From positions 1-39,503 of IMG/VR virus record IMGVR_UViG_3300028837_000601: 39,503 nt of DNA; one strand, 5' to 3'. The notes beneath the pieces were generated by a model. That model saw nothing but the letters and a program-made list of their open reading frames with translations, was not told where the DNA came from and ran no database searches. The stretch comes from a virus. Shown here one piece after another: positions 5,759-39,503 of this stretch. The position numbers and the translations under genes were made by a program. Each line of letters opens with the position of its first letter. Position 1 is the first letter of the stretch.

Positions 5759-6109
5759 CTACCTCACAGTTCGTAACCAACATTCTTTATGATGACTAAC
5801 TGCACTATCCTGCATATTAGAGACTAATAAAATCTCATATCTTATCCACGTTGCCGTAGCTACATCATACACATCAACCCTGTTCCGCTCGGTGATAACT
5901 ATATCCCCCAAGAATAGTTTATAATCAGCTACAATGACCTCAGCTCCTACCATTACTTCTCTTCCACTACTAGCCATCAAGCGACAATCAATCTCTATCT
6001 GTCCCGCTACTTGTGTCCAGACAGGGATTATACCCCCATAACCATCTGTGGCAACCCCAGTATCCTCAAGGACGGTGCAACTATTTATCAATAAGGTATC
6101 ATAAGCCAT
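5759..6109 (-). CDS. head closure / head-tail joining protein (SPP1 gp16 / HK97 gp9-like)
   Basis: 116 aa. Pattern WTQVAGQIEIDCRLMASSGREVMVGAEVIVADYKLFLGDIVITERNRV is typical of the Phage_H_T_join family. Synteny supports the call. Confidence 0.65.
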   Translation of the reverse strand: MAYDTLLINSCTVLEDTGVATDGYGGIIPVWTQVAGQIEIDCRLMASSGREVMVGAEVIVADYKLFLGDIVITERNRVDVYDVATATWIRYEILLVSNMQDSAVSHHKECWLRTVR

Positions 6110-6459
6110 TAGTCGTCCTCTTCCCCAATCAAGTCCATTTCAGCCCAAGTTAAATAAGGCGTTGTCGCATCCTTTTCCCTTAACTCCTTCTGTAATTTGT
6201 TCATATTAGCAATTATCTTCTGCGTGTAGGCATAGTCTCCTATCTTTTCACTATCGGGAGCTGCGGCATATTTAGCCATCCACGCTGCCAGTGCATCAGC
6301 AGCAGCTAGATTGATGTTATTTGCATTAGCAGTTAGGAAATATGTTATCTCCTTATCGGTGAATACGGCATCAGTCGCTGGGGTCACATCAGTATCACCG
6401 ATTATCAGACGAACCTTACTTACATCATCACCTACGTTAGGGTCATAAGTAGCTGTCAC
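6109..6459 (-). CDS. head-tail adaptor (gp6-like connector) candidate
   Basis: 116 aa. Contains VSKVRLIIGDTDVTPATDAVFTDKEITYFL and an Ala-rich helix. First gene of the connector set. Confidence 0.5.
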   Translation of the reverse strand: MTATYDPNVGDDVSKVRLIIGDTDVTPATDAVFTDKEITYFLTANANNINLAAADALAAWMAKYAAAPDSEKIGDYAYTQKIIANMNKLQKELREKDATTPYLTWAEMDLIGEEDD

Positions 6460-8441
6460 GGAAACCTCCTTATTATCCAGCGGTATAGAGGCATACGGGA
6501 TATATTTAGTCTCTTAATTGGTATTCTGGAAATCTGTTGCCTAGCATAAGTTCTTAGCCTAAGAATACCAAACATTGAGTCAGTTATAGTTACTACATCA
6601 GACTTAACGATAGAAAATGCCTTCTTTATTACATCAGCGATAGTAACTGTTTCTCTTTTAACTAACCCCATTGATTTGCTTAAAACATCAGTGATTGTAA
6701 CTGTATCGGCTTTCCTTAACCCCATTCCTTTAATCAGAGCATCAGCTATAGTGATAGAATCATCAAAGGGTAAGCCGAACTTCTTAGAGATTGCATCAGC
6801 TATGGCTATCGTATCGGTTTTAGCAATGCCGATGCCTTTAACTAGAGAATCGGATATTGCGATAGAATCGGCTTTACCCAATCCAACAGCCTTAATCAAG
6901 GCATCTGCAATAGTTACCGTATCTGCTATGGAGAGGTAAAACTCCACCACATCTGCTATAGAGTCGGAAATTGCAACATTATCAGCCTTCACTAATCCTA
7001 TTGCCATCTCTATAACATCTGCTATTGCGACAGAATCGGCAAGGCTTCTCTCATATGTTACCGCCCTCGCAAATGTGTCTGCGAGAGCTATGCTATCCGC
7101 CTTATTTAATCCCACCTCTTTTGAGATAGCGTCAGCTATAGCAATAGAATCGCTATGCGGTTGACCTACCCCTTTTGAGATAGCATCGGCAATAGTTTCT
7201 GTATCAGAAAAAGCCCTTTCAAATGTTGATACCAATGAAGGACTATCAGCAATGGCAACACTATCAGATTGAGCCTGACCGACTGCTTTAGAGACGGCAT
7301 CCGCTACCCCCACAGAATCAGCCTGCGGTTGCCCTACCCCTTTTGAGATGGCATCAGCTATTCCTAGACTATCTGAATGCGGTTGTCCGACAGACTTCAT
7401 GATGGTATCGGCTATTGTAACTGTATCGGATAATGCTTTTTCGTGGTCAATGCCTGCTACTGTATAATGTATCCTTATAGAAACACAATCAACATAAGCG
7501 TGGCAGGATGTTGAATCACGGGTGTTGTATGCCGAGATGTCTATACCAAAATCTTCACTTACAATATCAGTATCAGCTAATTCAGCGTTCCAAGTATCCG
7601 TCGCCCCCCCATAAGTTACTTCCTCATCTGGGGGGGTAAGAGTGTGGTCCCTCCAGATTGAAGCTGATGCCTTGTTATCCCCTATCTGCCCGGCTGTTTT
7701 GCGAAGATATAAAGCACTATCGTTAATAAACACCTCATCAACAGGCTTTTCGGCACTACGCTCCATCTTCATCTCAATACCATCTATAGTAGCCCCTTCA
7801 GGTATATCCTCAGAGGTAAAACCAAAGTTAGTAAGTCGTAGCCAATCACTATAATCTTCCTTATCAACATCGCAGTCTGCCCAGGCATCATCGCTTGCCT
7901 TAGCATTATCTGGGTTTTGCCAAGAGTTTTTACCATCTCGGTCAACATTTGCTGCTGTGCCTGGGAACTTCCAATCTGTTACTTCAGACATCTGACCTTC
8001 TGCTTCCTCACCTATACCATAAAGACTTATTGCATAATCAGCTAATAATGTGTAAGTTGTTTCATCATTCGGGTCTATGTTTTGACCATCTGCGAACCAA
8101 GCTCCATCCCCTCCAGTTGAGTCTCGTTCTATTCTACCCGCAGTAGCATATAACCCAATATAATCGCCTACTTCAACAGCTATTGAAAGCCCGCCAAATG
8201 TTTGCTCTGAGCCAGCAACTACATTACCGATAGCTACACTATCCCGACATTTTAGTGTATCGCCATTTGTAGTAAAAAATGTTCCAACAATACAATTTGC
8301 TAACTCAAGCGATGCCCAAATTTTAACAGTATCAATTGTGCCATTAGCATTAGCAGGGTTAGTTTTGGAGACATACGTCCTATCGGCAATAGTTGACCAA
8401 CTTGAACGGTCTATTGCGAGTGCACCAATATCAATAGCCAC
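6456..8441 (-). CDS. large virion-associated protein with sixteen 18-20-aa tandem repeats (fibre or beta-helix candidate)
   Basis: 661-aa ORF. Residues 343-618 are repeats of the form IADAISKxVGxxxxDSxx. Two globular N-terminal regions and a very basic C-terminal tail. Confidence 0.8.
   Translation of the reverse strand: MAIDIGALAIDRSSWSTIADRTYVSKTNPANANGTIDTVKIWASLELANCIVGTFFTTNGDTLKCRDSVAIGNVVAGSEQTFGGLSIAVEVGDYIGLYATAGRIERDSTGGDGAWFADGQNIDPNDETTYTLLADYAISLYGIGEEAEGQMSEVTDWKFPGTAANVDRDGKNSWQNPDNAKASDDAWADCDVDKEDYSDWLRLTNFGFTSEDIPEGATIDGIEMKMERSAEKPVDEVFINDSALYLRKTAGQIGDNKASASIWRDHTLTPPDEEVTYGGATDTWNAELADTDIVSEDFGIDISAYNTRDSTSCHAYVDCVSIRIHYTVAGIDHEKALSDTVTIADTIMKSVGQPHSDSLGIADAISKGVGQPQADSVGVADAVSKAVGQAQSDSVAIADSPSLVSTFERAFSDTETIADAISKGVGQPHSDSIAIADAISKEVGLNKADSIALADTFARAVTYERSLADSVAIADVIEMAIGLVKADNVAISDSIADVVEFYLSIADTVTIADALIKAVGLGKADSIAISDSLVKGIGIAKTDTIAIADAISKKFGLPFDDSITIADALIKGMGLRKADTVTITDVLSKSMGLVKRETVTIADVIKKAFSIVKSDVVTITDSMFGILRLRTYARQQISRIPIKRLNISRMPLYRWIIRRFP
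6570..7433 (-). repeat. in-frame tandem repeat, 54-nt (some 60-nt) units, 16 copies
   Basis: The protein repeats include IADTIMKSVGQPHSDSLG, IADAISKGVGQPQADSVG, VADAVSKAVGQAQSDSVA ... IADVIKKAFSIVKSDVVT. Three units carry a 2-aa insertion. Confidence 0.85.
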
Positions 8442-19485: not shown

Positions 19486-19835
19486 AATTCTCCTGTCAAT
19501 GGCTCTACTGCTACATAGCCAGCCATATCTTCCAAGCATCGCCTATAACCATACCATCTCTTATAAGCTACCGAGTTTCCATCGTTTATATCCCATGCTT
19601 GTTGTGCCTTTAACTCGTAGGGATTCTCGGGTAACTCCCTATCTACCTTTATCACCACACCTTGAGAGTCCTCATATCCCATTATTTCCTTTGCCATTGC
19701 CCTAGTTAATCTCTTTGCAGCCCCACCTTCAAGTAGACCCTCCCATTCATTATTAGCCTGCAGGCCAGAGACGCTACGCCTAAAATCCCATATTCTCTGT
19801 GCTATCCCTTCCCTTATCTCTTCTTGCTTAGTCAT
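19482..19835 (-). CDS. hypothetical protein
   Basis: 117-aa ORF translationally coupled on both sides. Confidence 0.7.
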   Translation of the reverse strand: MTKQEEIREGIAQRIWDFRRSVSGLQANNEWEGLLEGGAAKRLTRAMAKEIMGYEDSQGVVIKVDRELPENPYELKAQQAWDINDGNSVAYKRWYGYRRCLEDMAGYVAVEPLTGEL

Positions 19836-20161
19836 AACTCAAGCTCCTTAATCTTTACAATATAATTATCTATACCATGAACACCCGCAACTTTAAGTTG
19901 ATTTATCATATCCAATATTGCATTCATAGTTTCTTCATAATTACCACCGCCCAAAATAATATTATCTTGCATAATGTCTACTTTATGGGGATGGGCAAGT
20001 ATCCTAAACTGCTCAAGCTCTTCCCTAGAGATATAGAAGCCATCCTTACTCCTGCAAAATACAGCTTTAAGCCTATCCATTACTTCTTGAGGGGGGTCTT
20101 CTCCTGGGAAATATACTTCATGCCCAACATATTCGCCCTCTTTGAGATAAGTTTCATTCAT
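19832..20161 (-). CDS. hypothetical protein
   Basis: 109-aa ORF sharing a 4-nt overlap with terL. Confidence 0.7.
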   Translation of the reverse strand: MNETYLKEGEYVGHEVYFPGEDPPQEVMDRLKAVFCRSKDGFYISREELEQFRILAHPHKVDIMQDNIILGGGNYEETMNAILDMINQLKVAGVHGIDNYIVKIKELEL

Positions 20162-21354
20162 AGCTCCAGCTCCTTTACTGCTTCCATTGCATCATAGACT
20201 ATTATGTTCTCTTCTTCTGTCGGCTCTGCTCTACCCATTATACCATATCTTCTGGCATCTATGCCATGCGAGAATGTGTGAGTGGTCTTATCAGTAAATT
20301 TGCCGTTCTTATCCTGTATATATCTGAAGTTTCTTTGTTCCTTGATACAGTTTGTAGAATTCTTAGTCCAGAACTGCTTATACTGCCTGACTTTTTGATG
20401 CCCGTATTCTACACTCCCTGGTCCCTTTGGTGCTCCCTTAATATTGAAGCCATATCTAAGTATCTCGTCTATTGACTTTGGCTCAGCAGAATCAGCAAAT
20501 ATCTCATCATAATTACGCTTAACTCCTAGCTCATCCATCCTATAAGCTATGGCATCGTTAGTTAATCCCGCTTCGTATATCAGTTCCTCGCTGTATAGCT
20601 CATCACCTCTTATAACACAACGGATTAGAGCAGTGGGATCGTTAGAGTAACCAAAGTCCAGTCCATAAAATACGTCACCCCCGGGCAATTCATCCACCTG
20701 CCCAAAGAAGGGATAGACAAGCCCCTCTACTTTACCCAGTTTCCCATAGATGTAAATATTGGCCCAATTAGGGTCTCGTTCTCCGGTAGCCAAGATATTA
20801 CTGATTACTTCGGGGGGAAGCACATATTCGGCATCTTTATAGGTTGAATGGATATAGGCATTCTCAGGCTGTCCCATCCAGTTTGTATGTGCCCAGAATT
20901 CACTAACAGGATTCCAGTCAACGAAGGTAAACTTGGCGGTTCGTATATCTAGTCCCCTAGCCGTCTCCCAAGGTACATTATTACCCTCGTTTATGAAGAG
21001 AATATCACGCCTCGGTCCCCTTACTTTATCCGCCTCATCAGCCCCAAAGAATTCAATTACACCCCTACCAAAAGTATAGGTATGCTCGGTCTTGTTATAC
21101 CGAGGACTGGCATCCTGGCTTTCCCCAAGTATCCTAAAGAAATCTCTTATTGCTCCCCTTTTAAGGTGCGGTAAGGATTCGCTAACAACCGAGATTAATA
21201 ATGGCGATTTAGTATTCTGGGCTATAAGGATAAGAAGCTGTAAAATTGACCAGGTCTTACTTGAGTAAGTTCCCCCCTCGTTTAATGCCCGCCTCTTATC
21301 ACCCAGCCAGGCCTTAGCATTCTCTTCATAAATTTTAGTTGTTGTTATTTTCAC
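20158..21354 (-). CDS. terL: terminase large subunit (PBSX / Terminase_3-like)
   Basis: 398 aa. N-terminal P-loop-like NEGGTYSSKTWSIL, then FINEGNNV (Walker B-like), then a C-terminal nuclease-type region. GTG start without an RBS. Confidence 0.85.
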   Translation of the reverse strand: MKITTTKIYEENAKAWLGDKRRALNEGGTYSSKTWSILQLLILIAQNTKSPLLISVVSESLPHLKRGAIRDFFRILGESQDASPRYNKTEHTYTFGRGVIEFFGADEADKVRGPRRDILFINEGNNVPWETARGLDIRTAKFTFVDWNPVSEFWAHTNWMGQPENAYIHSTYKDAEYVLPPEVISNILATGERDPNWANIYIYGKLGKVEGLVYPFFGQVDELPGGDVFYGLDFGYSNDPTALIRCVIRGDELYSEELIYEAGLTNDAIAYRMDELGVKRNYDEIFADSAEPKSIDEILRYGFNIKGAPKGPGSVEYGHQKVRQYKQFWTKNSTNCIKEQRNFRYIQDKNGKFTDKTTHTFSHGIDARRYGIMGRAEPTEEENIIVYDAMEAVKELEL

Positions 21355-21513
21355 TATTTCATTATATCGTTAATGTTTATTTACAAAGATTTTAAAACTT
21401 TTTAATTTTGAACAGTTGGTACATTTTTGAGATTTTTTTTCTTAAAAATGAGCAAAATTCACTCGTAAAATGCCGTTTTTAAGGTCTTTTATTTTGCAAG
21501 CATTAAACCCCTC

Positions 21514-21989
21514 GCTAAATAATACGGTTTTTAGGACACTAGCCAAAAACCTGTGTTTTTCGGACAGGTGCCGAATTTCGCTGTTTTCTGACCCTTAGCC
21601 AAAAAACTCTGTTTTCTGGACGGCGGCCGAATAACGCTATTTTTTAGACCCGTGCCAAACTTTGATGTTTTTTAGACAGTGGCCTAAAAATGATGTTTTC
21701 CAGACCAGTGCCAAAATCCATTGTTTTTTTGGAGGTGGCCAAGAAATGCAATTTTTTTGACTGGTGCCAAATAATGCACTTTTTTTAATCAGTGCCAGGA
21801 AATGATGTTTTTCGGATGCCCGCCAAAAAACGGTGTTTTTTTAACCCTAGCCAAATCCCGTAGTTTTTTTGCCCCCTGCCAAAACTTACAGTTTTTTAGA
21901 GCCTAGCCAAAAAGCTAAGTTTTTTGGAGCCGTGCCAAGATTCGTAGTTTTTTAGCCCCCAGCCAAATTCGTTACTTTTTCTGGCAAAT
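21514..21989. repeat. 17 tandem units of exactly 28 bp, consensus GCCAAA-N7-GTTTTT(T)-N8; non-coding
   Basis: GCC (GCT in unit 1) starts at 21514 and then at every 28th base through 21962. TTTT occupies unit positions 15-18 in all 17 units. The variable blocks keep a fixed length. Confidence 0.95.
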
Positions 21990-22098
21990 TTTAAAACTAA
22001 AATAAAGTACATCAAAAAGTGGCATTTTGAGACTAGAAAAGGGTCAAAATTAAATATTTTTTCCCTAAAATGTACCAGTTGCACAGAATTAAAATATA

Positions 22099-22197
22099 TT
22101 ATAATATTGCTAAGGCACAAGTTCCCAAAAGGGCAACCCCTATCAGTACCATGCCCAAGCCAATTAGTAAAAGTCCAAGCTTCTGAATATTACTCAT
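22099..22197 (-). CDS. 32-aa hydrophobic (single-TM) peptide
   Basis: Not in the ORF track. GGGGAG RBS, ATG 22197. Translation: MSNIQKLGLLLIGLGMVLIGVALLGTCALAIL. Confidence 0.4.
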   Translation of the reverse strand: MSNIQKLGLLLIGLGMVLIGVALLGTCALAIL

Positions 22198-22211
22198 TGT
22201 GTTTGCTCCCC

Positions 22212-22388
22212 TTAGTATTCGGGTATTACATTGCCATCAGCGTCTACACACTGTATAGAGGTCTTAGCAAATCCGCTGGTAGAAGTCCATTTGGGTTGCA
22301 CGGATTTTGATTTCTGCGGTGGGAGAAGTAGGGCGTGTAACCTGATTCGCTTCATTCTCTCCCGATTCCTAGCCTTGCTCAATGGCAT
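22212..22388 (-). CDS. small basic protein
   Basis: MPLSKARNRERMKRIRL...QCVDADGNVIPEY. Start placed at ATG 22388, so it overlaps the terS-like 3' end by 20 nt. Confidence 0.5.
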   Translation of the reverse strand: MPLSKARNRERMKRIRLHALLLPPQKSKSVQPKWTSTSGFAKTSIQCVDADGNVIPEY

Positions 22389-22752
22389 CTTCAGTCCTCT
22401 CACCCCTTGTAATCTGTTCAGTCAATCTCTTTGCTGTTTCACTGGAGACATTAATAACATAAATGGGTTTCTCGGTATCTCCCCCTATGGGGAGGGTAAC
22501 TTTCCCCTCTGTCCTATCAAAGATTATATCTAATGCCCTCGTATCACCGGTTAAGGCTTTCCTTAATAATGCCTTAACCACTGCTTCCTTGAGCTTCTTA
22601 TTATCCCCTTCGGGTATCTGGTCTAATAGTTCTCTCAATACAGCAGTTAGGCTCTTGCCCTTCTGCATACCCCCAGGATTGCCAGATTGCCCAGGCTTCC
22701 ACTGGTGTTCTATAAATTCCTTGTTTTTACCTTGCCTTTGAGGATTTCCCAT
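22369..22752 (-). CDS. small-terminase-like DNA-binding protein (DUF5681-type GNPxG motif)
   Basis: 127 aa. Contains KPGQSGNPGGMQKGKS and ALLRKALTGDTRALDIIFDRTEGK, as I recall for DUF5681 / TerS-annotated phage proteins. First gene of the late operon, upstream of terL. Confidence 0.55.
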   Translation of the reverse strand: MGNPQRQGKNKEFIEHQWKPGQSGNPGGMQKGKSLTAVLRELLDQIPEGDNKKLKEAVVKALLRKALTGDTRALDIIFDRTEGKVTLPIGGDTEKPIYVINVSSETAKRLTEQITRGERTEDAIEQG

Positions 22753-23065
22753 ACTACTCCCAGTGTCCCCAACCGTTATCCCGCCTATGACCAGAATATA
22801 GGCATAGGCACTCCGCTATTTATAAGTATAACATATCTATTCAATTATCACTCTGTGGGGCTAATAGAGTTCGGTTAATCCTCAGTATGCGGCATCCCCT
22901 ATGTGGTTCTGCCCCTCCGACTAACCGATAACTAGCATCACCTCATTCGCCCCACAGCCTTTGACCTGAACTGGAGTCCCCTCCACCTTTTAAGGCTTCA
23001 CCCTGTGGTGTCTTCCACCCACTTACTCAGCCACCCTATTAGCTCAGGTTGAGCACCTTCCTGCT
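22753..23065 (-). promoter_or_regulatory. long GC-rich structured 5' leader of the late operon (candidate cis-regulatory RNA)
   Basis: No ORF on either strand. A 9-bp helix pairs CUGUGGGGC (22957-22949) with GCCCCACAG (22861-22853), enclosing a nested UCGGUUA/UAACCGA helix. An alternative pairing of the same CUGUGG exists with CCACAG at 23008-23003. Confidence 0.45.
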
Positions 23066-23071
23066 ACTTCC

Positions 23072-23100
23072 ATTATACCACATCACTGCTTTATCCGCAA
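23072..23100 (-). promoter_or_regulatory. sigma70-like promoter TTGCGG-N17-TGgTATAAT driving the late (minus-strand) operon
   Basis: On the minus strand the -35 is at 23100-23095 and the TATAAT at 23077-23072, preceded by TGG. Confidence 0.6.
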
Positions 23101-29178: not shown

Positions 29179-29273
29179 TGTCCGCCACGACTGCTAGGCG
29201 GACAAGGCGGACAATCTAGCTATGAATAGGCGGACACAGATGGACAAAGCGGACAGGGCGGACAAGGCGGACA
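29179..29273. repeat. iteron array: 7 direct plus 1 inverted copy of GGCGGACA (9-bp phasing)
   Basis: Direct copies at 29197, 29206, 29229, 29239 (GATGGACA), 29248 (AGCGGACA), 29257 and 29266. Inverted copy TGTCCGCC at 29179-29186. The array ends 13 nt before ATG 29287. Confidence 0.85.
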
Positions 29274-29286
29274 AGAAGGAGTTAAA

Positions 29287-30306
29287 ATGGCAGAGCGACT
29301 CTCGGATAAGTTAAGGGAATACTTGAGGAAGGCACAGGGTAGAATAGTAAATCTCAGAGACTTGAGGTCGGAATTAAGAATAGACCCATCTGACCCTGCG
29401 TGGGAGAGTTTGGGTCGTGAGATGAGACGGCTTGCCACAGAAAAGATAGTTCGTCCCTCCGGTAAGAATGATGGCTTCTACAAGGTTGTTACTCAGGTTA
29501 AACCCGTGAGGGTATTTATCAAGGAGCGGGAACGCAGACCGCCGTTTAATCTAATGTTCCCCAAAGACTTTGATACAGGTATGGAGATGTGCTTCGCTGA
29601 AGATATAGTAATTAGGGAAGGAGACCTAATTTCAGTTGGTGGTGTTAGTAACTATGGCAAGACTTGCATCGCCCTGAATATCTGCGGAGAGAATATACAT
29701 CATCTCCCTATACTAATGGGAAACGAATATACGACTAGAGTTGGGGAGACCAATGAATACGAACCCACTCCTAGATTTCTGAATAGACTGGACAATATGG
29801 ATTGGGTGGAGTGGGTGAATGGTAGCGGACAGGATAAGTTCACATTACTCCCTGTAAGGGCTGATTATGCAGAGCACATAGTCAAGGACAGGATAAACAT
29901 TATTGATTGGGTAAATCTGGATGCTAACAGACTATATGATATAAGCCAGTTAGAGGAAGACATTAAGGCGGAGATTGGTAGGGGAATTGCTGTTATAGTC
30001 CTCCAGAAAGGTGAGGGGGCAGATGTGGCTCGTGGCGGGCAGTTCGTTAAAGATTTCGTAGATTGCGAATTGAACATAGATAAACTTACAGAAAGAGAGA
30101 GTATGCTAACCATAGGCAAGGTCAAGGAATATACGAAGTCGGTAATGGGCAGGAAGTTTGCCTTTGGTATCTTCAAGGGGGTTAAGATTACTAACTTCAG
30201 AGAGATAGTCAAGTGTAATGTATGTTATGGCAAGGGATGGAAGAAGTCGGGCAATACAAGTATCCCTTGTGATGAGTGTAATAAAACGGGGTATGTGGAC
30301 AAATGA
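29287..30306 (+). CDS. replication initiator / helicase-like RecA-fold ATPase with N-terminal wHTH-like domain and C-terminal DnaJ-type Zn finger
   Basis: 339 aa. Walker A GGVSNYGKT, Walker B-like INIIDWVNL, and DnaB-H4-like ARGGQFVKDFVDCEL. C-terminal CNVCYGKGW...CDECNKTGYV. Confidence 0.6.
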   Translation: MAERLSDKLREYLRKAQGRIVNLRDLRSELRIDPSDPAWESLGREMRRLATEKIVRPSGKNDGFYKVVTQVKPVRVFIKERERRPPFNLMFPKDFDTGMEMCFAEDIVIREGDLISVGGVSNYGKTCIALNICGENIHHLPILMGNEYTTRVGETNEYEPTPRFLNRLDNMDWVEWVNGSGQDKFTLLPVRADYAEHIVKDRINIIDWVNLDANRLYDISQLEEDIKAEIGRGIAVIVLQKGEGADVARGGQFVKDFVDCELNIDKLTERESMLTIGKVKEYTKSVMGRKFAFGIFKGVKITNFREIVKCNVCYGKGWKKSGNTSIPCDECNKTGYVDK

Positions 30307-34422: not shown

Positions 34423-34971
34423 TTGAATAAGAAGTATCAGATAATATACGCTGACCCACCTTGGGAATATAGTGATGGTAGAGGTGCGAGAAGTAGGGGA
34501 TGTGCTAAGTCCGCCTTTCCCTTAATGCCCTTATCTGATATAAAATCACTACCTGTTAGTGAGATAACTGATAAGGATTGTGTATTGTTTTTGTGGGTAA
34601 CAATGCCTATGCTTATTGAGGGCTTGGAAGTTATTAACTCTTGGGGTTTTAATTACAGGACTTGTGCCTTTGTCTGGGTGAAACAGAACCCAAGTGGCAT
34701 GGGTATCTACTCTGGTTTAGGCTATTGGACAAACGGGAATGCTGAATTGTGTTTGTTTGCTCGGAAAGGTAACCCAAGGCGTATCGCAAAAAATATAAAG
34801 CAGATTGTCTTATCGCCGAGAGGGGAACATAGCAGAAAGCCTATTGAGGTAAGGGAACGCATTGTTCAACTAATGGGCGATTTACCACGCATAGAACTGT
34901 TTGCTCGTAGAAAAGTTGAGGGCTGGGATTGTTGGGGTAATGAAGTAGAAAGCGATGTAGAGCTAACTTAA
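34423..34971 (+). CDS. DNA N6-adenine methyltransferase (MT-A70 family)
   Basis: YQIIYADPPWEY (DPPW catalytic motif), LFLWVT, GFNYRTCAFVWVK and ELCLFARKG. TTG start. Confidence 0.85.
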   Translation: MNKKYQIIYADPPWEYSDGRGARSRGCAKSAFPLMPLSDIKSLPVSEITDKDCVLFLWVTMPMLIEGLEVINSWGFNYRTCAFVWVKQNPSGMGIYSGLGYWTNGNAELCLFARKGNPRRIAKNIKQIVLSPRGEHSRKPIEVRERIVQLMGDLPRIELFARRKVEGWDCWGNEVESDVELT

Positions 34972-38043: not shown

Positions 38044-39503
38044 TATTCCTTCTCTTCCAGACCCTTAATCTGTCCTAGTAGAGTTATTAAATCCTTGCTG
38101 TAAGCCCCGAAGTGAACTGTAATCTTTTCCGTTGTCTTGTTCAGCATGTTGAATTTGATACCTTGAATTAGGTAGTAATCATCTATGCCCCGTAAGAAGT
38201 TGTATATCTTTACCTTCTGACCAACGACAAGTCCCTCCTGGTAGCAGACTAAACTCCCAGTCTCTTTGCCAAATGCCCTCTCGGCTAATACGGCTTCACC
38301 CACTGAGTCCCCCCAATCATTAGTGTCAATGTTTTCATCTACTACCTTACAGTAAAACTCACGCCCATAATAGGCAATGCTAGGAGCACTTATACTCTCT
38401 CGGTTTACCCCAGTCCCAATAACTCTTACCCTATTGCATACCTGAGAAGTATCCTCCCCAAACTGAATATTGTCATATCCTACTTTAGCTGGTGGTGTGG
38501 GAGAACTTGAGAGCTCAAAGGGTGCTCCTACAATAGATGGCGTGAAGTAGTGTAGCTTTTTGTTAAAGTCAATATACCACTCTCTTCCATAGATTTTAGC
38601 TATCTCATCCAAGACTTCATTTAAAGGAATTCTAGTCCAACCCAGTGTCGCTTGCACTCCAGATGAGGAGACATAAGTAGTAGTATCAATCTCAGACAGA
38701 TAGGCTGAGAACAAGAAGTCTATCATTTGCTGTTCATCTTGGTCTGCAAAATCCTTAGTAACCAGTTGTCCAGTTGGTAAAATATTATAATCCTGAGCTG
38801 TGATGCGGTAAATCCTTCTACTTCCAACCATCCTCATTTCTTTAGTAGAAACATAGCCACCAAAAAAGTCAGTCAGATAATCAGTATCTATGCCAGTAAT
38901 CTTGATTTCGTCCTTACCCCAGGGATAGGTTAATCCGCCATAAGCATTAGCATCCATAGTAGCAACGACCCCCTCATCCATCAGCCACATAGCAACAGTG
39001 TGTCCGTCAAGGATTGGTCTATTATCATTATGTATTTGGAGATGTTGGGCTTCCGAAAGTGCACAATCATAAACAGCTAGGAACTCTATCTTGCCATCAA
39101 AAGGATAAGAGGTTTTGTCGTCAAAAATACCTATCTTAGCTGACCTAGCACAAGTAGTTGGGTCTACAAGTGCTTCACTTGTAAGGGTTACATCAATGCC
39201 ATTTCTGTATATTTTGCCCGCAGCCCCATCCCGACTACACCCCATTGTGAGCCAACTCCCAGTTGTTATTGTTCCCGCATCTGCATATGCACTCTGAACT
39301 GCTGCTGGAGTCTGACTAACGTAAAGGCGAAGCCTTCCAGTAGATTCAGCGATAAAGAAGTAACCATCAACAGCAGTCAATCCCCTACAGAATAGCATTC
39401 TATGAGCAGTCAAATCATCAATATAACCCCTAGCAACAATAGAGAAGTCCCCAGCGGTAAAGTTTAACTGAGCATGAGCAGCAGGAATTTCTACATAGCT
39501 AGG
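38043..39503 (-). CDS. tail-tip/baseplate protein with LamG-like domain, 3' part (complete product about 546 aa when joined to 1..324)
   Basis: The frame is open to the window end. LamG-type pattern LFCRGLTAVDGYFFIAESTGRLRLY...SWLTMGCSRDG...IYRNG...FDGKIEFLAVYDCALS. C-terminal hub-like EVLDEIAKIYGREWYIDFNKKLHYF. Confidence 0.8.
   Translation of the reverse strand, partial: PSYVEIPAAHAQLNFTAGDFSIVARGYIDDLTAHRMLFCRGLTAVDGYFFIAESTGRLRLYVSQTPAAVQSAYADAGTITTGSWLTMGCSRDGAAGKIYRNGIDVTLTSEALVDPTTCARSAKIGIFDDKTSYPFDGKIEFLAVYDCALSEAQHLQIHNDNRPILDGHTVAMWLMDEGVVATMDANAYGGLTYPWGKDEIKITGIDTDYLTDFFGGYVSTKEMRMVGSRRIYRITAQDYNILPTGQLVTKDFADQDEQQMIDFLFSAYLSEIDTTTYVSSSGVQATLGWTRIPLNEVLDEIAKIYGREWYIDFNKKLHYFTPSIVGAPFELSSSPTPPAKVGYDNIQFGEDTSQVCNRVRVIGTGVNRESISAPSIAYYGREFYCKVVDENIDTNDWGDSVGEAVLAERAFGKETGSLVCYQEGLVVGQKVKIYNFLRGIDDYYLIQGIKFNMLNKTTEKITVHFGAYSKDLITLLGQIKGLEEKE
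39360..39503. repeat. terminal direct repeat, copy 2
   Basis: Identical to 1-144. Unique genome length is therefore 39,359 bp. Confidence 0.95.

Follow-up and report, generated by a model that had tools for sequence, protein, structure and literature searches.

A single-copy cassette of seventeen phased 28-bp units between inverted-repeat arms, inserted beside the terL gene of a sediment phage, is a candidate protein-binding array

The virus record IMGVR_UViG_3300028837_000601, analysed here over its whole length of 39,503 nucleotides (the window), carries directly upstream of the gene for its large terminase (terL) a non-coding array of 17 tandem units, each exactly 28 bp long. Our analysis confirms the array, finds it unusual and subject to constraint, and indicates that it is not the ancestral packaging (pac) site of the phage group. 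To judge from the comparison of related loci, it sits in a lineage-specific insertion that possesses inverted-repeat flanks of its own. The reading that we tentatively favour, at somewhat less than even confidence, is that of a horizontally acquired, dyad-symmetric non-coding cassette which would act as DNA, its array forming a phased lattice of 17 protein-binding sites.

Each unit of the array opens with the triplet GC(C/T), which recurs at 21514 + 28n for n = 0-16, and zero indels were found across the 476 bp that end at position 21989. The column tallies reported in an initial annotation of the same letters were reproduced (C3 in 16/17 units, T15-T18 in 17/17 and G14 in 13/17), the invariant columns being G1 and C2, with 17/17 each, and T15-T18. 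Further constraint is seen at A4-A6 (14-16/17), T19 (14/17) and T20 (12/17). The constraint on the two cores that the annotation had described is thus borne out, whereas its picture of positions 7-13 and 21-28 as differing between units applies to a part of them only, as G22 (14/17), A23 (12/17), C24 (12/17), Y10 (16/17) and W13 (16/17) are well conserved and the truly free positions are limited to 9, 12 and 25-28. The information per unit sums to ~29 bits. Identity between units, taken over 12 free positions, is 34%, so that these positions are nearly randomised.

Growth of the array by local duplication had been suggested from apparent near-copies among its units, and the present counts weaken this claim considerably: units 2/4 and 9/10 agree at 21/28 positions, 13/16 at 22/28 and 3/5 at 18/28, against a background of ~17/28 and a range of 11-22/28 over the unit-versus-unit comparisons. 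Tandem Repeats Finder (TRF) calls the array at periods 28, 56 and 84, the lag-28 identity of the array is 0.61, and no higher-order repeat of 56 or 84 bp was found within it. The occurrence of invariant columns beside saturated ones, together with the absence of indels, argues for selection on a spaced motif and not for recent duplication. A position weight matrix (PWM) of unit positions 1-24 assigns 20-31 bits to every unit and at most 9.4 bits to any site in the rest of the 39.5-kb window on both strands, while shuffled sequence yields ~3 matches above 8 bits. The non-coding nature of the array was confirmed by the presence of 5-9 stops in each of the six frames, with a longest open stretch of 67 codons. 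Furthermore, run SRR3085585 was assembled independently in Logan, and the resulting contig (L047) is 100% identical to the window over 1856 bp, the array included.

The unit consensus, which can also be written GCCAAAAAaCGcTGTTTTTTgGACCctt, comprises 24 bp that are readable as an imperfect palindrome, GYC-A5-N6-T5-GRC, and a free linker of 4 bp behind them. Its two GYC triplets (positions 1-3 of the top strand and 24-22 of the bottom strand) are 21 bp, or two helical turns, apart and have the A-tract and the T-tract between them. This pseudo-palindrome is reflected in the score that the PWM gives to four units on the opposite strand as well, and the comparison of the array with its own reverse complement shows 45-51% identity in every 28-bp register. 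The symmetry is incomplete, which makes the unit directional as well. Individual units show no mirror symmetry across the array (i versus 18-i), the generic pseudo-palindrome of the unit being the only symmetry of this kind detected. As 28 bp correspond to 2.67 turns, neighbouring sites are rotated by ~240 degrees with respect to each other, and three units complete eight turns. Curved or superhelical DNA, an option already raised in the initial annotation, is also the outcome of a crude wedge model, which predicts a regular shallow superhelix: the ratio of end-to-end distance to contour length is 0.94 at 84 bp, the lowest of all genome windows, while at 336 bp the ratio of the array is 0.93 versus a mean of 0.875 for ordinary sequence, the array being straight at this scale.

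The insertion was recognised by comparison with the closest relative found, L182, a metagenome contig of the European Nucleotide Archive (ENA). The two phages share a gene for a DUF5681 protein, which by position resembles a small-terminase gene (terS-like; 86% nucleotide and 80% amino acid identity), and terL (77% nucleotide identity). Homology to L182 covers 22209-22111 of the window, through the end of a 32-aa membrane open reading frame (ORF), and resumes at terL from 21343 onwards. In L182, the membrane ORF stops ~12 bp before the terL start, compared with 744 bp in the window. The gene-free gap, earlier given as 857 bp, is accordingly reduced to 744 bp (21355-22098), for the conserved 32-aa ORF lies inside the longer interval. 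Neither does the terS-like gene abut the gap, as had been assumed, because a basic ORF of 58/63 aa and the 32-aa ORF intervene. The junctions of the insert are AT-rich and show no visible target-site duplication, the insertion point being uncertain by ~15 nt.

Together with both arms of ~125 bp each, which enclose the array, the cassette extends over ~759 bp. Aligned in inverted orientation, the arms match at 85/122 positions with a score of 74, versus 38 in the direct-orientation control; under a first-order Markov null (39.7±8.8), 0.4% of trials reach 74 (p~0.004). The dyad axis of the arms at ~21747 coincides with the centre of the array (21751.5) and with a unit pseudo-dyad at 21749. The arm mismatches display no G:U bias for either strand (5 vs 5), and the arm symmetry hence reads as a property of the DNA. 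The GC content of the flanks is 24.5% on the left (21355-21513) and 24.8% on the right (to 22098), compared with 42.8% in the genome, and no resemblance of the flanks to decayed units was detected, the best PWM score being 4-6 bits. A weak compositional sign of foreign origin is the CpG observed/expected ratio of 0.89 in the cassette versus 0.52 in the genome; another weak compositional sign is the occurrence in the cassette of 6 otherwise avoided 4-bp palindromes versus 2.2 expected (p = 0.02). The flanking genes remain 77-86% identical to those of L182 at the nucleotide level but the linkers of the array are saturated, from which we infer that the array is older than the split of the two phages and arrived already diverged.

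The terL-proximal end of the insert carries, on the minus strand, a perfect TATAAT (21366..21361) just upstream of terL and a mini-ORF, ATGAAATAG (21362..21354), which shares one base with the GTG start of terL. These two features may compensate for the translational coupling that the insertion broke. A promoter and terminator scan of the region revealed no excess over shuffled sequence (6 vs 5.2 and 2 vs 3.1, respectively). The coordinates of the array, of the parts of the cassette and of the neighbouring genes are collected in Table 1.

Table 1. Array, cassette and adjacent genes in the window
Feature	Position	Strand	Basis or remark
Array of 17 tandem 28-bp units	21514..21989	no strand	IUPAC consensus GCCAAAWWNYKNWGTTTTTYDGACNNNN; register, TRF, unique PWM
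Left inverted-repeat arm, imperfect	21381..21507	no strand	Repeat pairing and alignment to the reverse complement of the right arm
Right inverted-repeat arm	21990..22113	no strand	Shares its outer 15 nt with the 3' end of the 32-aa ORF
Inserted segment of 744 bp	21355..22098	no strand	blastn of the closest relative L182 against the window: no counterpart
Hydrophobic membrane ORF of 32 aa (MSNIQKLGLLLIGLGMVLIGVALLGTCALAIL)	22099..22197	-	GGGGAG ribosome-binding site; directly upstream of the cassette
Small basic ORF	22212..22403	-	Probable start ATG at 22388 (MPLSKARNRERMKRIRL...); 58/63 aa; conserved partner of the DUF5681 gene
DUF5681 protein, terS-like candidate by position	22369..22752	-	Pfam PF18932, E = 8.7e-16; first gene of the leftward structural operon
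terL, large terminase, GTG start	20158..21354	-	Terminase_3C, E = 2.8e-12

Arrays in the gap between terS and terL of related phages, to which the initial annotation had pointed as a check, did not come to light. TRF, 8-mer clustering and sliding autocorrelation were applied to ~140 related loci (~0.95 Mb), and all of them agree on the absence of an array. An array is missing from 8 other contigs of the close DUF5681 clade, the members L185-L189 and L306-L309 showing 18-160 bp before terL or another arrangement and likewise no array, and nothing comparable was found in 46 IMG/VR relatives of terL, with amino acid identities of up to 81%, or in 80 more distant DUF5681 loci. At the DNA level, neither the region 19800-23000 nor the cassette matched any of 50,697 phage and 72,556 plasmid records. 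The stringent pattern of the array returned 0 matches in IMG/VR, while a loose pattern (three occurrences of GCC-N11-TTTT, spaced by 28 bp) matched once in IMG/VR, 97 times in metagenomes and 34 times in GTDB; all of the matches inspected proved unrelated, being either homogeneous minisatellites or terminator duplications of 3 copies. The arm motif AAAATGTACCARYTGNNCA occurs in IMG/VR as 36 single matches and zero paired ones, and local blastn of the arms and the array against the collected loci retrieved nothing related. Altogether, no second copy of the array pattern or of the arms was found in IMG/VR, JGI metagenome contigs, 185,579 GTDB species genomes or the phage and plasmid records, a result of incomplete coverage, as the pattern-searched collection excludes the contig of the window itself. 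A search of the literature on DUF5681 and on repeat arrays between terminase genes turned up nothing pertinent.

A cyanobacterial repeat family, GCCCAACTACGAACTTTTTTGGGCTAAA, was considered as a homologue and rejected: it shares 18/28 positions with the consensus of the phage unit, seven of which were forced by the search, and was the best of ~130, so that the likeness is attributed to ascertainment. A cyanobacterial source is further weakened by the origin of the phage in Baltic Sea sediment. The GCCCAACTACGAACTTTTTTGGGCTAAA family forms homogeneous 28-bp arrays in metagenome-assembled genomes (MAGs) of Oscillatoria (L174) and Prochloron (L156) and in the metagenome contigs L114 (several arrays, at L114:3422-3590, 5774-6012 and 1306-1502), L126 (L126:4253-4504), L050 and L136. 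A hairpin, TTGGGC-TAAA-GCCCAA, spans each of its unit boundaries, and it represents a dispersed family unrelated to the phage array.

The strict spacing, the two conserved blocks, the free linkers and the lack of indels are best explained by a single protein that binds repeatedly along the DNA duplex. The multi-site binding array with constrained cores and spacing proposed in the initial annotation is in this sense upheld by the pattern of the letters, in which invariant columns stand beside randomised ones, no indel disturbs the register, and explanations through coding or RNA structure fail. In the mechanism that seems most likely, the double-stranded DNA would form a lattice of 17 evenly spaced sites on which one sequence-specific protein, encoded by the phage or by the host, could dock, and each unit would offer to it two conserved contact blocks, GCCAAA and GTTTTTT-N-GAC, located ~1.5 turns apart. 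Neighbouring bound proteins would contact each other and, given the rotation between sites, would be expected to build a regular helical or superhelical nucleoprotein filament and not a same-face stack. Our guess as to its role is that such a complex probably acts in cis next to terL, perhaps as an accessory packaging or terminase-assembly platform, or alternatively as a regulator of, or a barrier for, terL expression.

Several observations weigh against the reading of the cassette as a binding lattice. The array is represented by a single genome from one sediment metagenome, in which conservation is readable between units only and not between species. No binding protein was found, Pfam and PHROG DNA-binding domains being absent among the 48 window ORFs scanned. 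The palindrome of the unit is imperfect, as C2 opposes A23 and conservation is tighter in the T-run than in the A-run, and binding by a dimer is thus not assured. The cassette lies within a transcribed operon, which makes a role at the RNA level possible, and its anatomy would also be compatible with a selfish element.

Among the alternatives, the one put forward initially was a pac site, in which the oligomeric terS-like DUF5681 protein would bind the units, wrap the DNA and position terL for the first cut. We judge it unlikely. Its main recommendation is adjacency, the array being part of the packaging module, in which it immediately precedes terL and follows the terS-like gene at a distance of 380 bp; a circular assembly with a 144-bp end overlap is compatible with headful packaging without being specific for it, and short, phage-specific direct repeats at the DNA level just past the DUF5681 gene of close relatives point to a theme of the group. 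However, L182 has a terS-like protein that is 80% identical and the same gene order but no array, none of the ~140 related loci has one, and the array thus lacks the positional conservation with a shared terminase module that is expected of a pac or cos site. The window also keeps the clade motif GTGCAACC at 22301..22294 along with an imperfect inverted copy, so that the slot for such a site is not empty, and the idea that the array replaced the short repeats of the relatives is weakened by the same motif. The 28-bp spacing (95 Å and a 240-degree rotation per unit) would be unfit for same-face wrapping around a small ring, and the DUF5681 protein, a terS candidate by its position, is itself unproven in this identity: a profile search of PDB sequences gave no solved relative, and its AlphaFold model is of low confidence (pLDDT 57). 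A centromere-like partition site or an iteron origin, with ParB/ParR-like or Rep-like proteins bound to the units and AT-rich arms that unwind, appears very improbable. It would account for the 17 phased binding motifs of ~29 bits each, tandem and partly palindromic like those of sopC (12 x 43 bp with a 16-bp inverted repeat; PMC3177203), for the flanks of ~25% GC, as AT-rich as an unwinding region should be, and for the position of the array near the GC-skew minimum at ~22-23 kb. The skew switch coincides with the switch in gene orientation, though, and the Pfam and PHROG scans of the 48 window ORFs revealed no ParA, ParB, ParR, TubZ-type, Rep or integrase protein. Iterons are normally spaced by about two helical turns (21-23 bp) and not by 28 bp. 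The present period amounts to 2.67 turns, and the neighbours are terL and the 32-aa ORF instead of an initiator. In addition, the cassette is absent from relatives, and seven 9-bp GCGGACA repeats beside a Walker-A protein of the early region are the likelier origin.

A selfish composite of the BOX type or of the type of miniature inverted-repeat transposable elements (MITE), consisting of a terminal module, (internal)n and an inverted terminal module, has a minor but real chance of being the correct explanation. Such an element would have landed in the operon and would be tolerated since its arms fold back in the mRNA, the cores serving the element through a mobilising enzyme or a host factor and not the phage. 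The discrete insertion relative to the closest relative fits this explanation, as do the inverted, AT-rich arms (24.5% and 24.8% GC) in the place of terminal modules, the layout reminiscent of boxA-(boxB)n-boxC, with end modules of 115 and 133 nt in S. suis (PMC3049150), and a predicted mRNA fold in which the arms pair to form a long closing stem, in the minimum free energy (MFE) structure as well as in the centroid (z = -5.2); the TATAAT and the terL-overlapping mini-ORF of the insert would be expected if downstream expression needed rescue. Against a selfish element stand the single copy, no dispersed ones having been found with the PWM in the window or in the contig, phage and plasmid searches, the lack of a recognisable target-site duplication, and the contrast to known BOX internal modules, which are near-identical and vary by indels, while here the free positions are saturated, the cores invariant and indels absent. 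The same fold is central to a function as RNA, in which a minus-strand transcript would expose 17 x GUC-A6-N6-UUUGGC, looped out by the pairing of the arms, and would serve as a protein sponge or a processing substrate or bring the upstream stop codon near the terL start. We regard it as improbable. The element is indeed in the transcribed orientation of a tight operon, and its minus-strand fold reaches -195.8 kcal/mol (z = -5.2) with the arms as closing stem; but the plus strand, too, has a good fold (z = -3.1), as expected from symmetry at the DNA level, both strands folding better than shuffles because the arms pair. The arms show no G:U asymmetry, no consensus hairpin exists within or between units (RNAalifold 0 kcal/mol for either strand in each of the 28 registers), Rfam contains no match at the gathering threshold or at E<=10, and known RNA sponges have no need of an exact period. 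A CRISPR array or a mimic of CRISPR repeats is not supported, as the units adjoin one another directly, with 3-8 variable nt and without spacers, and no Rfam CRISPR-DR match was obtained at E<=10; RNA anti-CRISPRs (Racrs) have been described as solitary units (PMC10651486). A functionless neutral minisatellite or an assembly artefact, finally, deserves next to no credence. Minisatellites of 28 bp are common in metagenomes, the pattern scan having yielded more than 100, but those examined in detail are homogeneous, and the lag-28 identity of matched loci runs from 0.97 to ~0.4, the arrays inspected at the low end having only ~3 copies each. In the array, a lag-28 identity of 0.61 goes together with invariant columns, and neither an indel nor a signature of slippage is seen. 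An artefact is contradicted by the 100% agreement of two assemblies and by units distinct enough for unique assembly.

The short repeats of the relatives were characterised as well, and they are candidate terminase-recognition sites which would make better pac candidates than the array. They consist of 3-4 copies of a phage-specific 8-9-mer, GGTATTAC, GGTATGAC, GCGTAACA, GGTTCACA, GTGCAACC or GTTAGACC, and are located at L182:638-689, L185:4379-4417, L186:994-1032, L188:6345-6469, L308:685-761 and L003:5619-5664, within a post-terS ORF with the N-terminus MPxSKxxxRExMxxxR. In L182, L185, L186, L188 and L003 they form the sole 8-mer triple of the locus, 59-388 bp downstream of the terS stop, while L308 has an 8-mer cluster 127 bp past the terS stop and a second cluster beyond it. 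Copies follow each other at distances of 11-57 bp, in most cases 11-17 bp, with two gaps of 27 and 57 bp, and the background rate of 8-mer clusters is ~0.04 per kb. As the copies fall in different reading frames in L186, L188 and L308, they can be regarded as DNA-level sites in these phages.

None of the known families fits the array as a member; the nearest functional analogue is of the sopC type and the nearest architectural one of the BOX type. The F-plasmid centromere sopC comprises 12 direct 43-bp repeats, and SopB binds the 16-bp inverted repeat contained in each of them (PMC3177203). It resembles the array as a long head-to-tail series with one partly palindromic motif per unit and a non-contacted linker, acting as DNA that seeds a large nucleoprotein complex. 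Its units, however, are near-identical and, at 43 bp or ~4 turns, lie on the same face, whereas those of the array have 28 bp, 2.67 turns and randomised linkers; moreover, sopC lies beside sopA and sopB on a plasmid, and no par genes were found here. In the family of repeats of oriP of Epstein-Barr virus (EBV), ~20 units of 30 bp each contain a site for an EBNA1 dimer. Unit length, copy number, one palindromic site per unit and a non-integer helical spacing are common to both, but oriP belongs to the episome of a eukaryotic herpesvirus, where it functions in tethering and as an enhancer, and there is no relationship in sequence or protein. Terminase sites such as R1-R3 of lambda cosB, the hexamers of P1 pac and pacL/pacR of SPP1 comprise 3-7 short sub-sites over ~100-200 bp, are located within terS or upstream of it, and their conservation goes along with that of the terminase. 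They share with the array the non-coding repeated motifs near terminase genes and, often, the involvement of bent or A-tract DNA; the array differs in its 17 x 28 bp, its location between an accessory ORF and terL and its absence from close relatives of the terminase module. The BIME-2/REP elements of enterobacteria are alternating palindromic units that bind gyrase, with GC-rich hairpins of ~35-40 nt, hundreds of copies and associated RAYT transposases. Alternately oriented half-motifs, conserved cores, variable linkers, an extragenic or operon-internal location and the potential to wrap a protein are points of likeness, while GC-rich hairpins, hundreds of copies and a RAYT association were not seen for the array. 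Streptococcal BOX elements have the structure boxA-(boxB)n-boxC, and the S. suis end modules boxE and boxF measure 115 and 133 nt (PMC3049150). End modules of ~120 nt with inverted complementarity around a tandem module, insertion in intergenic or operon positions and a predicted fold-back of the RNA are shared with the cassette, but BOX elements occur in multiple copies per genome and contain few, homogeneous boxB modules of 45 nt, in contrast to the single copy, 17 units and position-specific conservation described here.

If the reading of the cassette as a protein-binding lattice is true, it would be one of few instances in which a phage has taken up a large cis-acting DNA element into its packaging operon in the form of a discrete cassette, and three sites per eight turns would define a nucleoprotein geometry unlike that of same-face iteron or centromere arrays. 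With 476 bp and 17 sites, the array would also offer a clean synthetic target for pull-downs among the proteins of sediment phages or of the host. The comparison of related loci corrects the assumption that every repeat array adjacent to a terminase gene is a pac site. A more far-reaching proposal, which we consider distinctly unlikely, is an undescribed class of portable modules made of arms and a phased array, which would move between phages and recruit a trans-acting protein into a filament. The filament of such a module could be a transferable packaging or assembly signal, or a decoy that titrates a DNA-binding defence or silencing protein of the host.

On the minus strand, the genes around the cassette follow the order DUF5681 terS-like gene, basic ORF, membrane ORF, cassette, terL, two small ORFs and portal. 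A tblastn search with terL retrieved annotated terminase large subunits with up to 43% identity, and 46 homologues of the DUF5681 protein were recovered. The 32-aa ORF and its L182 counterpart are of equal length, with 59% amino acid and 70% nucleotide identity. The basic ORF is 43% identical to an ORF of L306 and has zero Pfam or PHROG matches. A mosaic breakpoint is visible at ~22460 in the DUF5681 gene, up to which the identity to L182 is 86% at the nucleotide level and after which there is none until the 32-aa ORF; the C-terminal 30 residues of the DUF5681 protein and the basic ORF come from a different, L306-like lineage. Between a promoter-like box, TGGTATAAT, and the DUF5681 gene lies a G-rich, untranslated leader of ~320 nt (22753-23075, minus strand; fold z = -3.2), which has no Rfam match at E<=1 and may be an unclassified structured leader.

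Bases 1-144 of the window are identical to 39360-39503, which shows the contig to be a circular assembly of a complete genome of 39,359 bp. The contig originates from Baltic Sea sediment (PMC9301287), and its carrier looks like a lytic phage with an uncultured host. In the early region, 29180-29275 contains seven 9-bp repeats, (A/G)GGCGGACA, which are preceded by an inverted copy, GTGTCCGCC, and lie directly upstream of an ORF of 339 aa (29287-30306). The encoded protein combines a Walker A motif, GVSNYGKT, with a zinc motif of the form CxxC...CxxC at its C-terminus and is the only Walker-A protein found in the scans; the repeats and this ORF are likely an origin/initiator or an autoregulated helicase-loader module. 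Several 4-bp palindromes are avoided to an extreme degree in the genome, with GATC 3, TCGA 3, CGCG 1, GCGC 8, GTAC 14, GGCC 14, ACGT 18, CCGG 18 and CATG 38 occurrences (83-148 expected for each), and a gene for an MT-A70 methyltransferase is present at 34423..34971. The avoidance of palindromes, the CpG ratio of 0.52 and the methyltransferase gene suggest that the phage is under strong pressure from restriction in its host. A periodicity of 54 bp, or 18 codons, with a lag identity of 0.61 extends over 6525-7477 within an ORF of 661 aa (6456..8441, minus strand), which is probably a repeat-containing tail or fibre protein.

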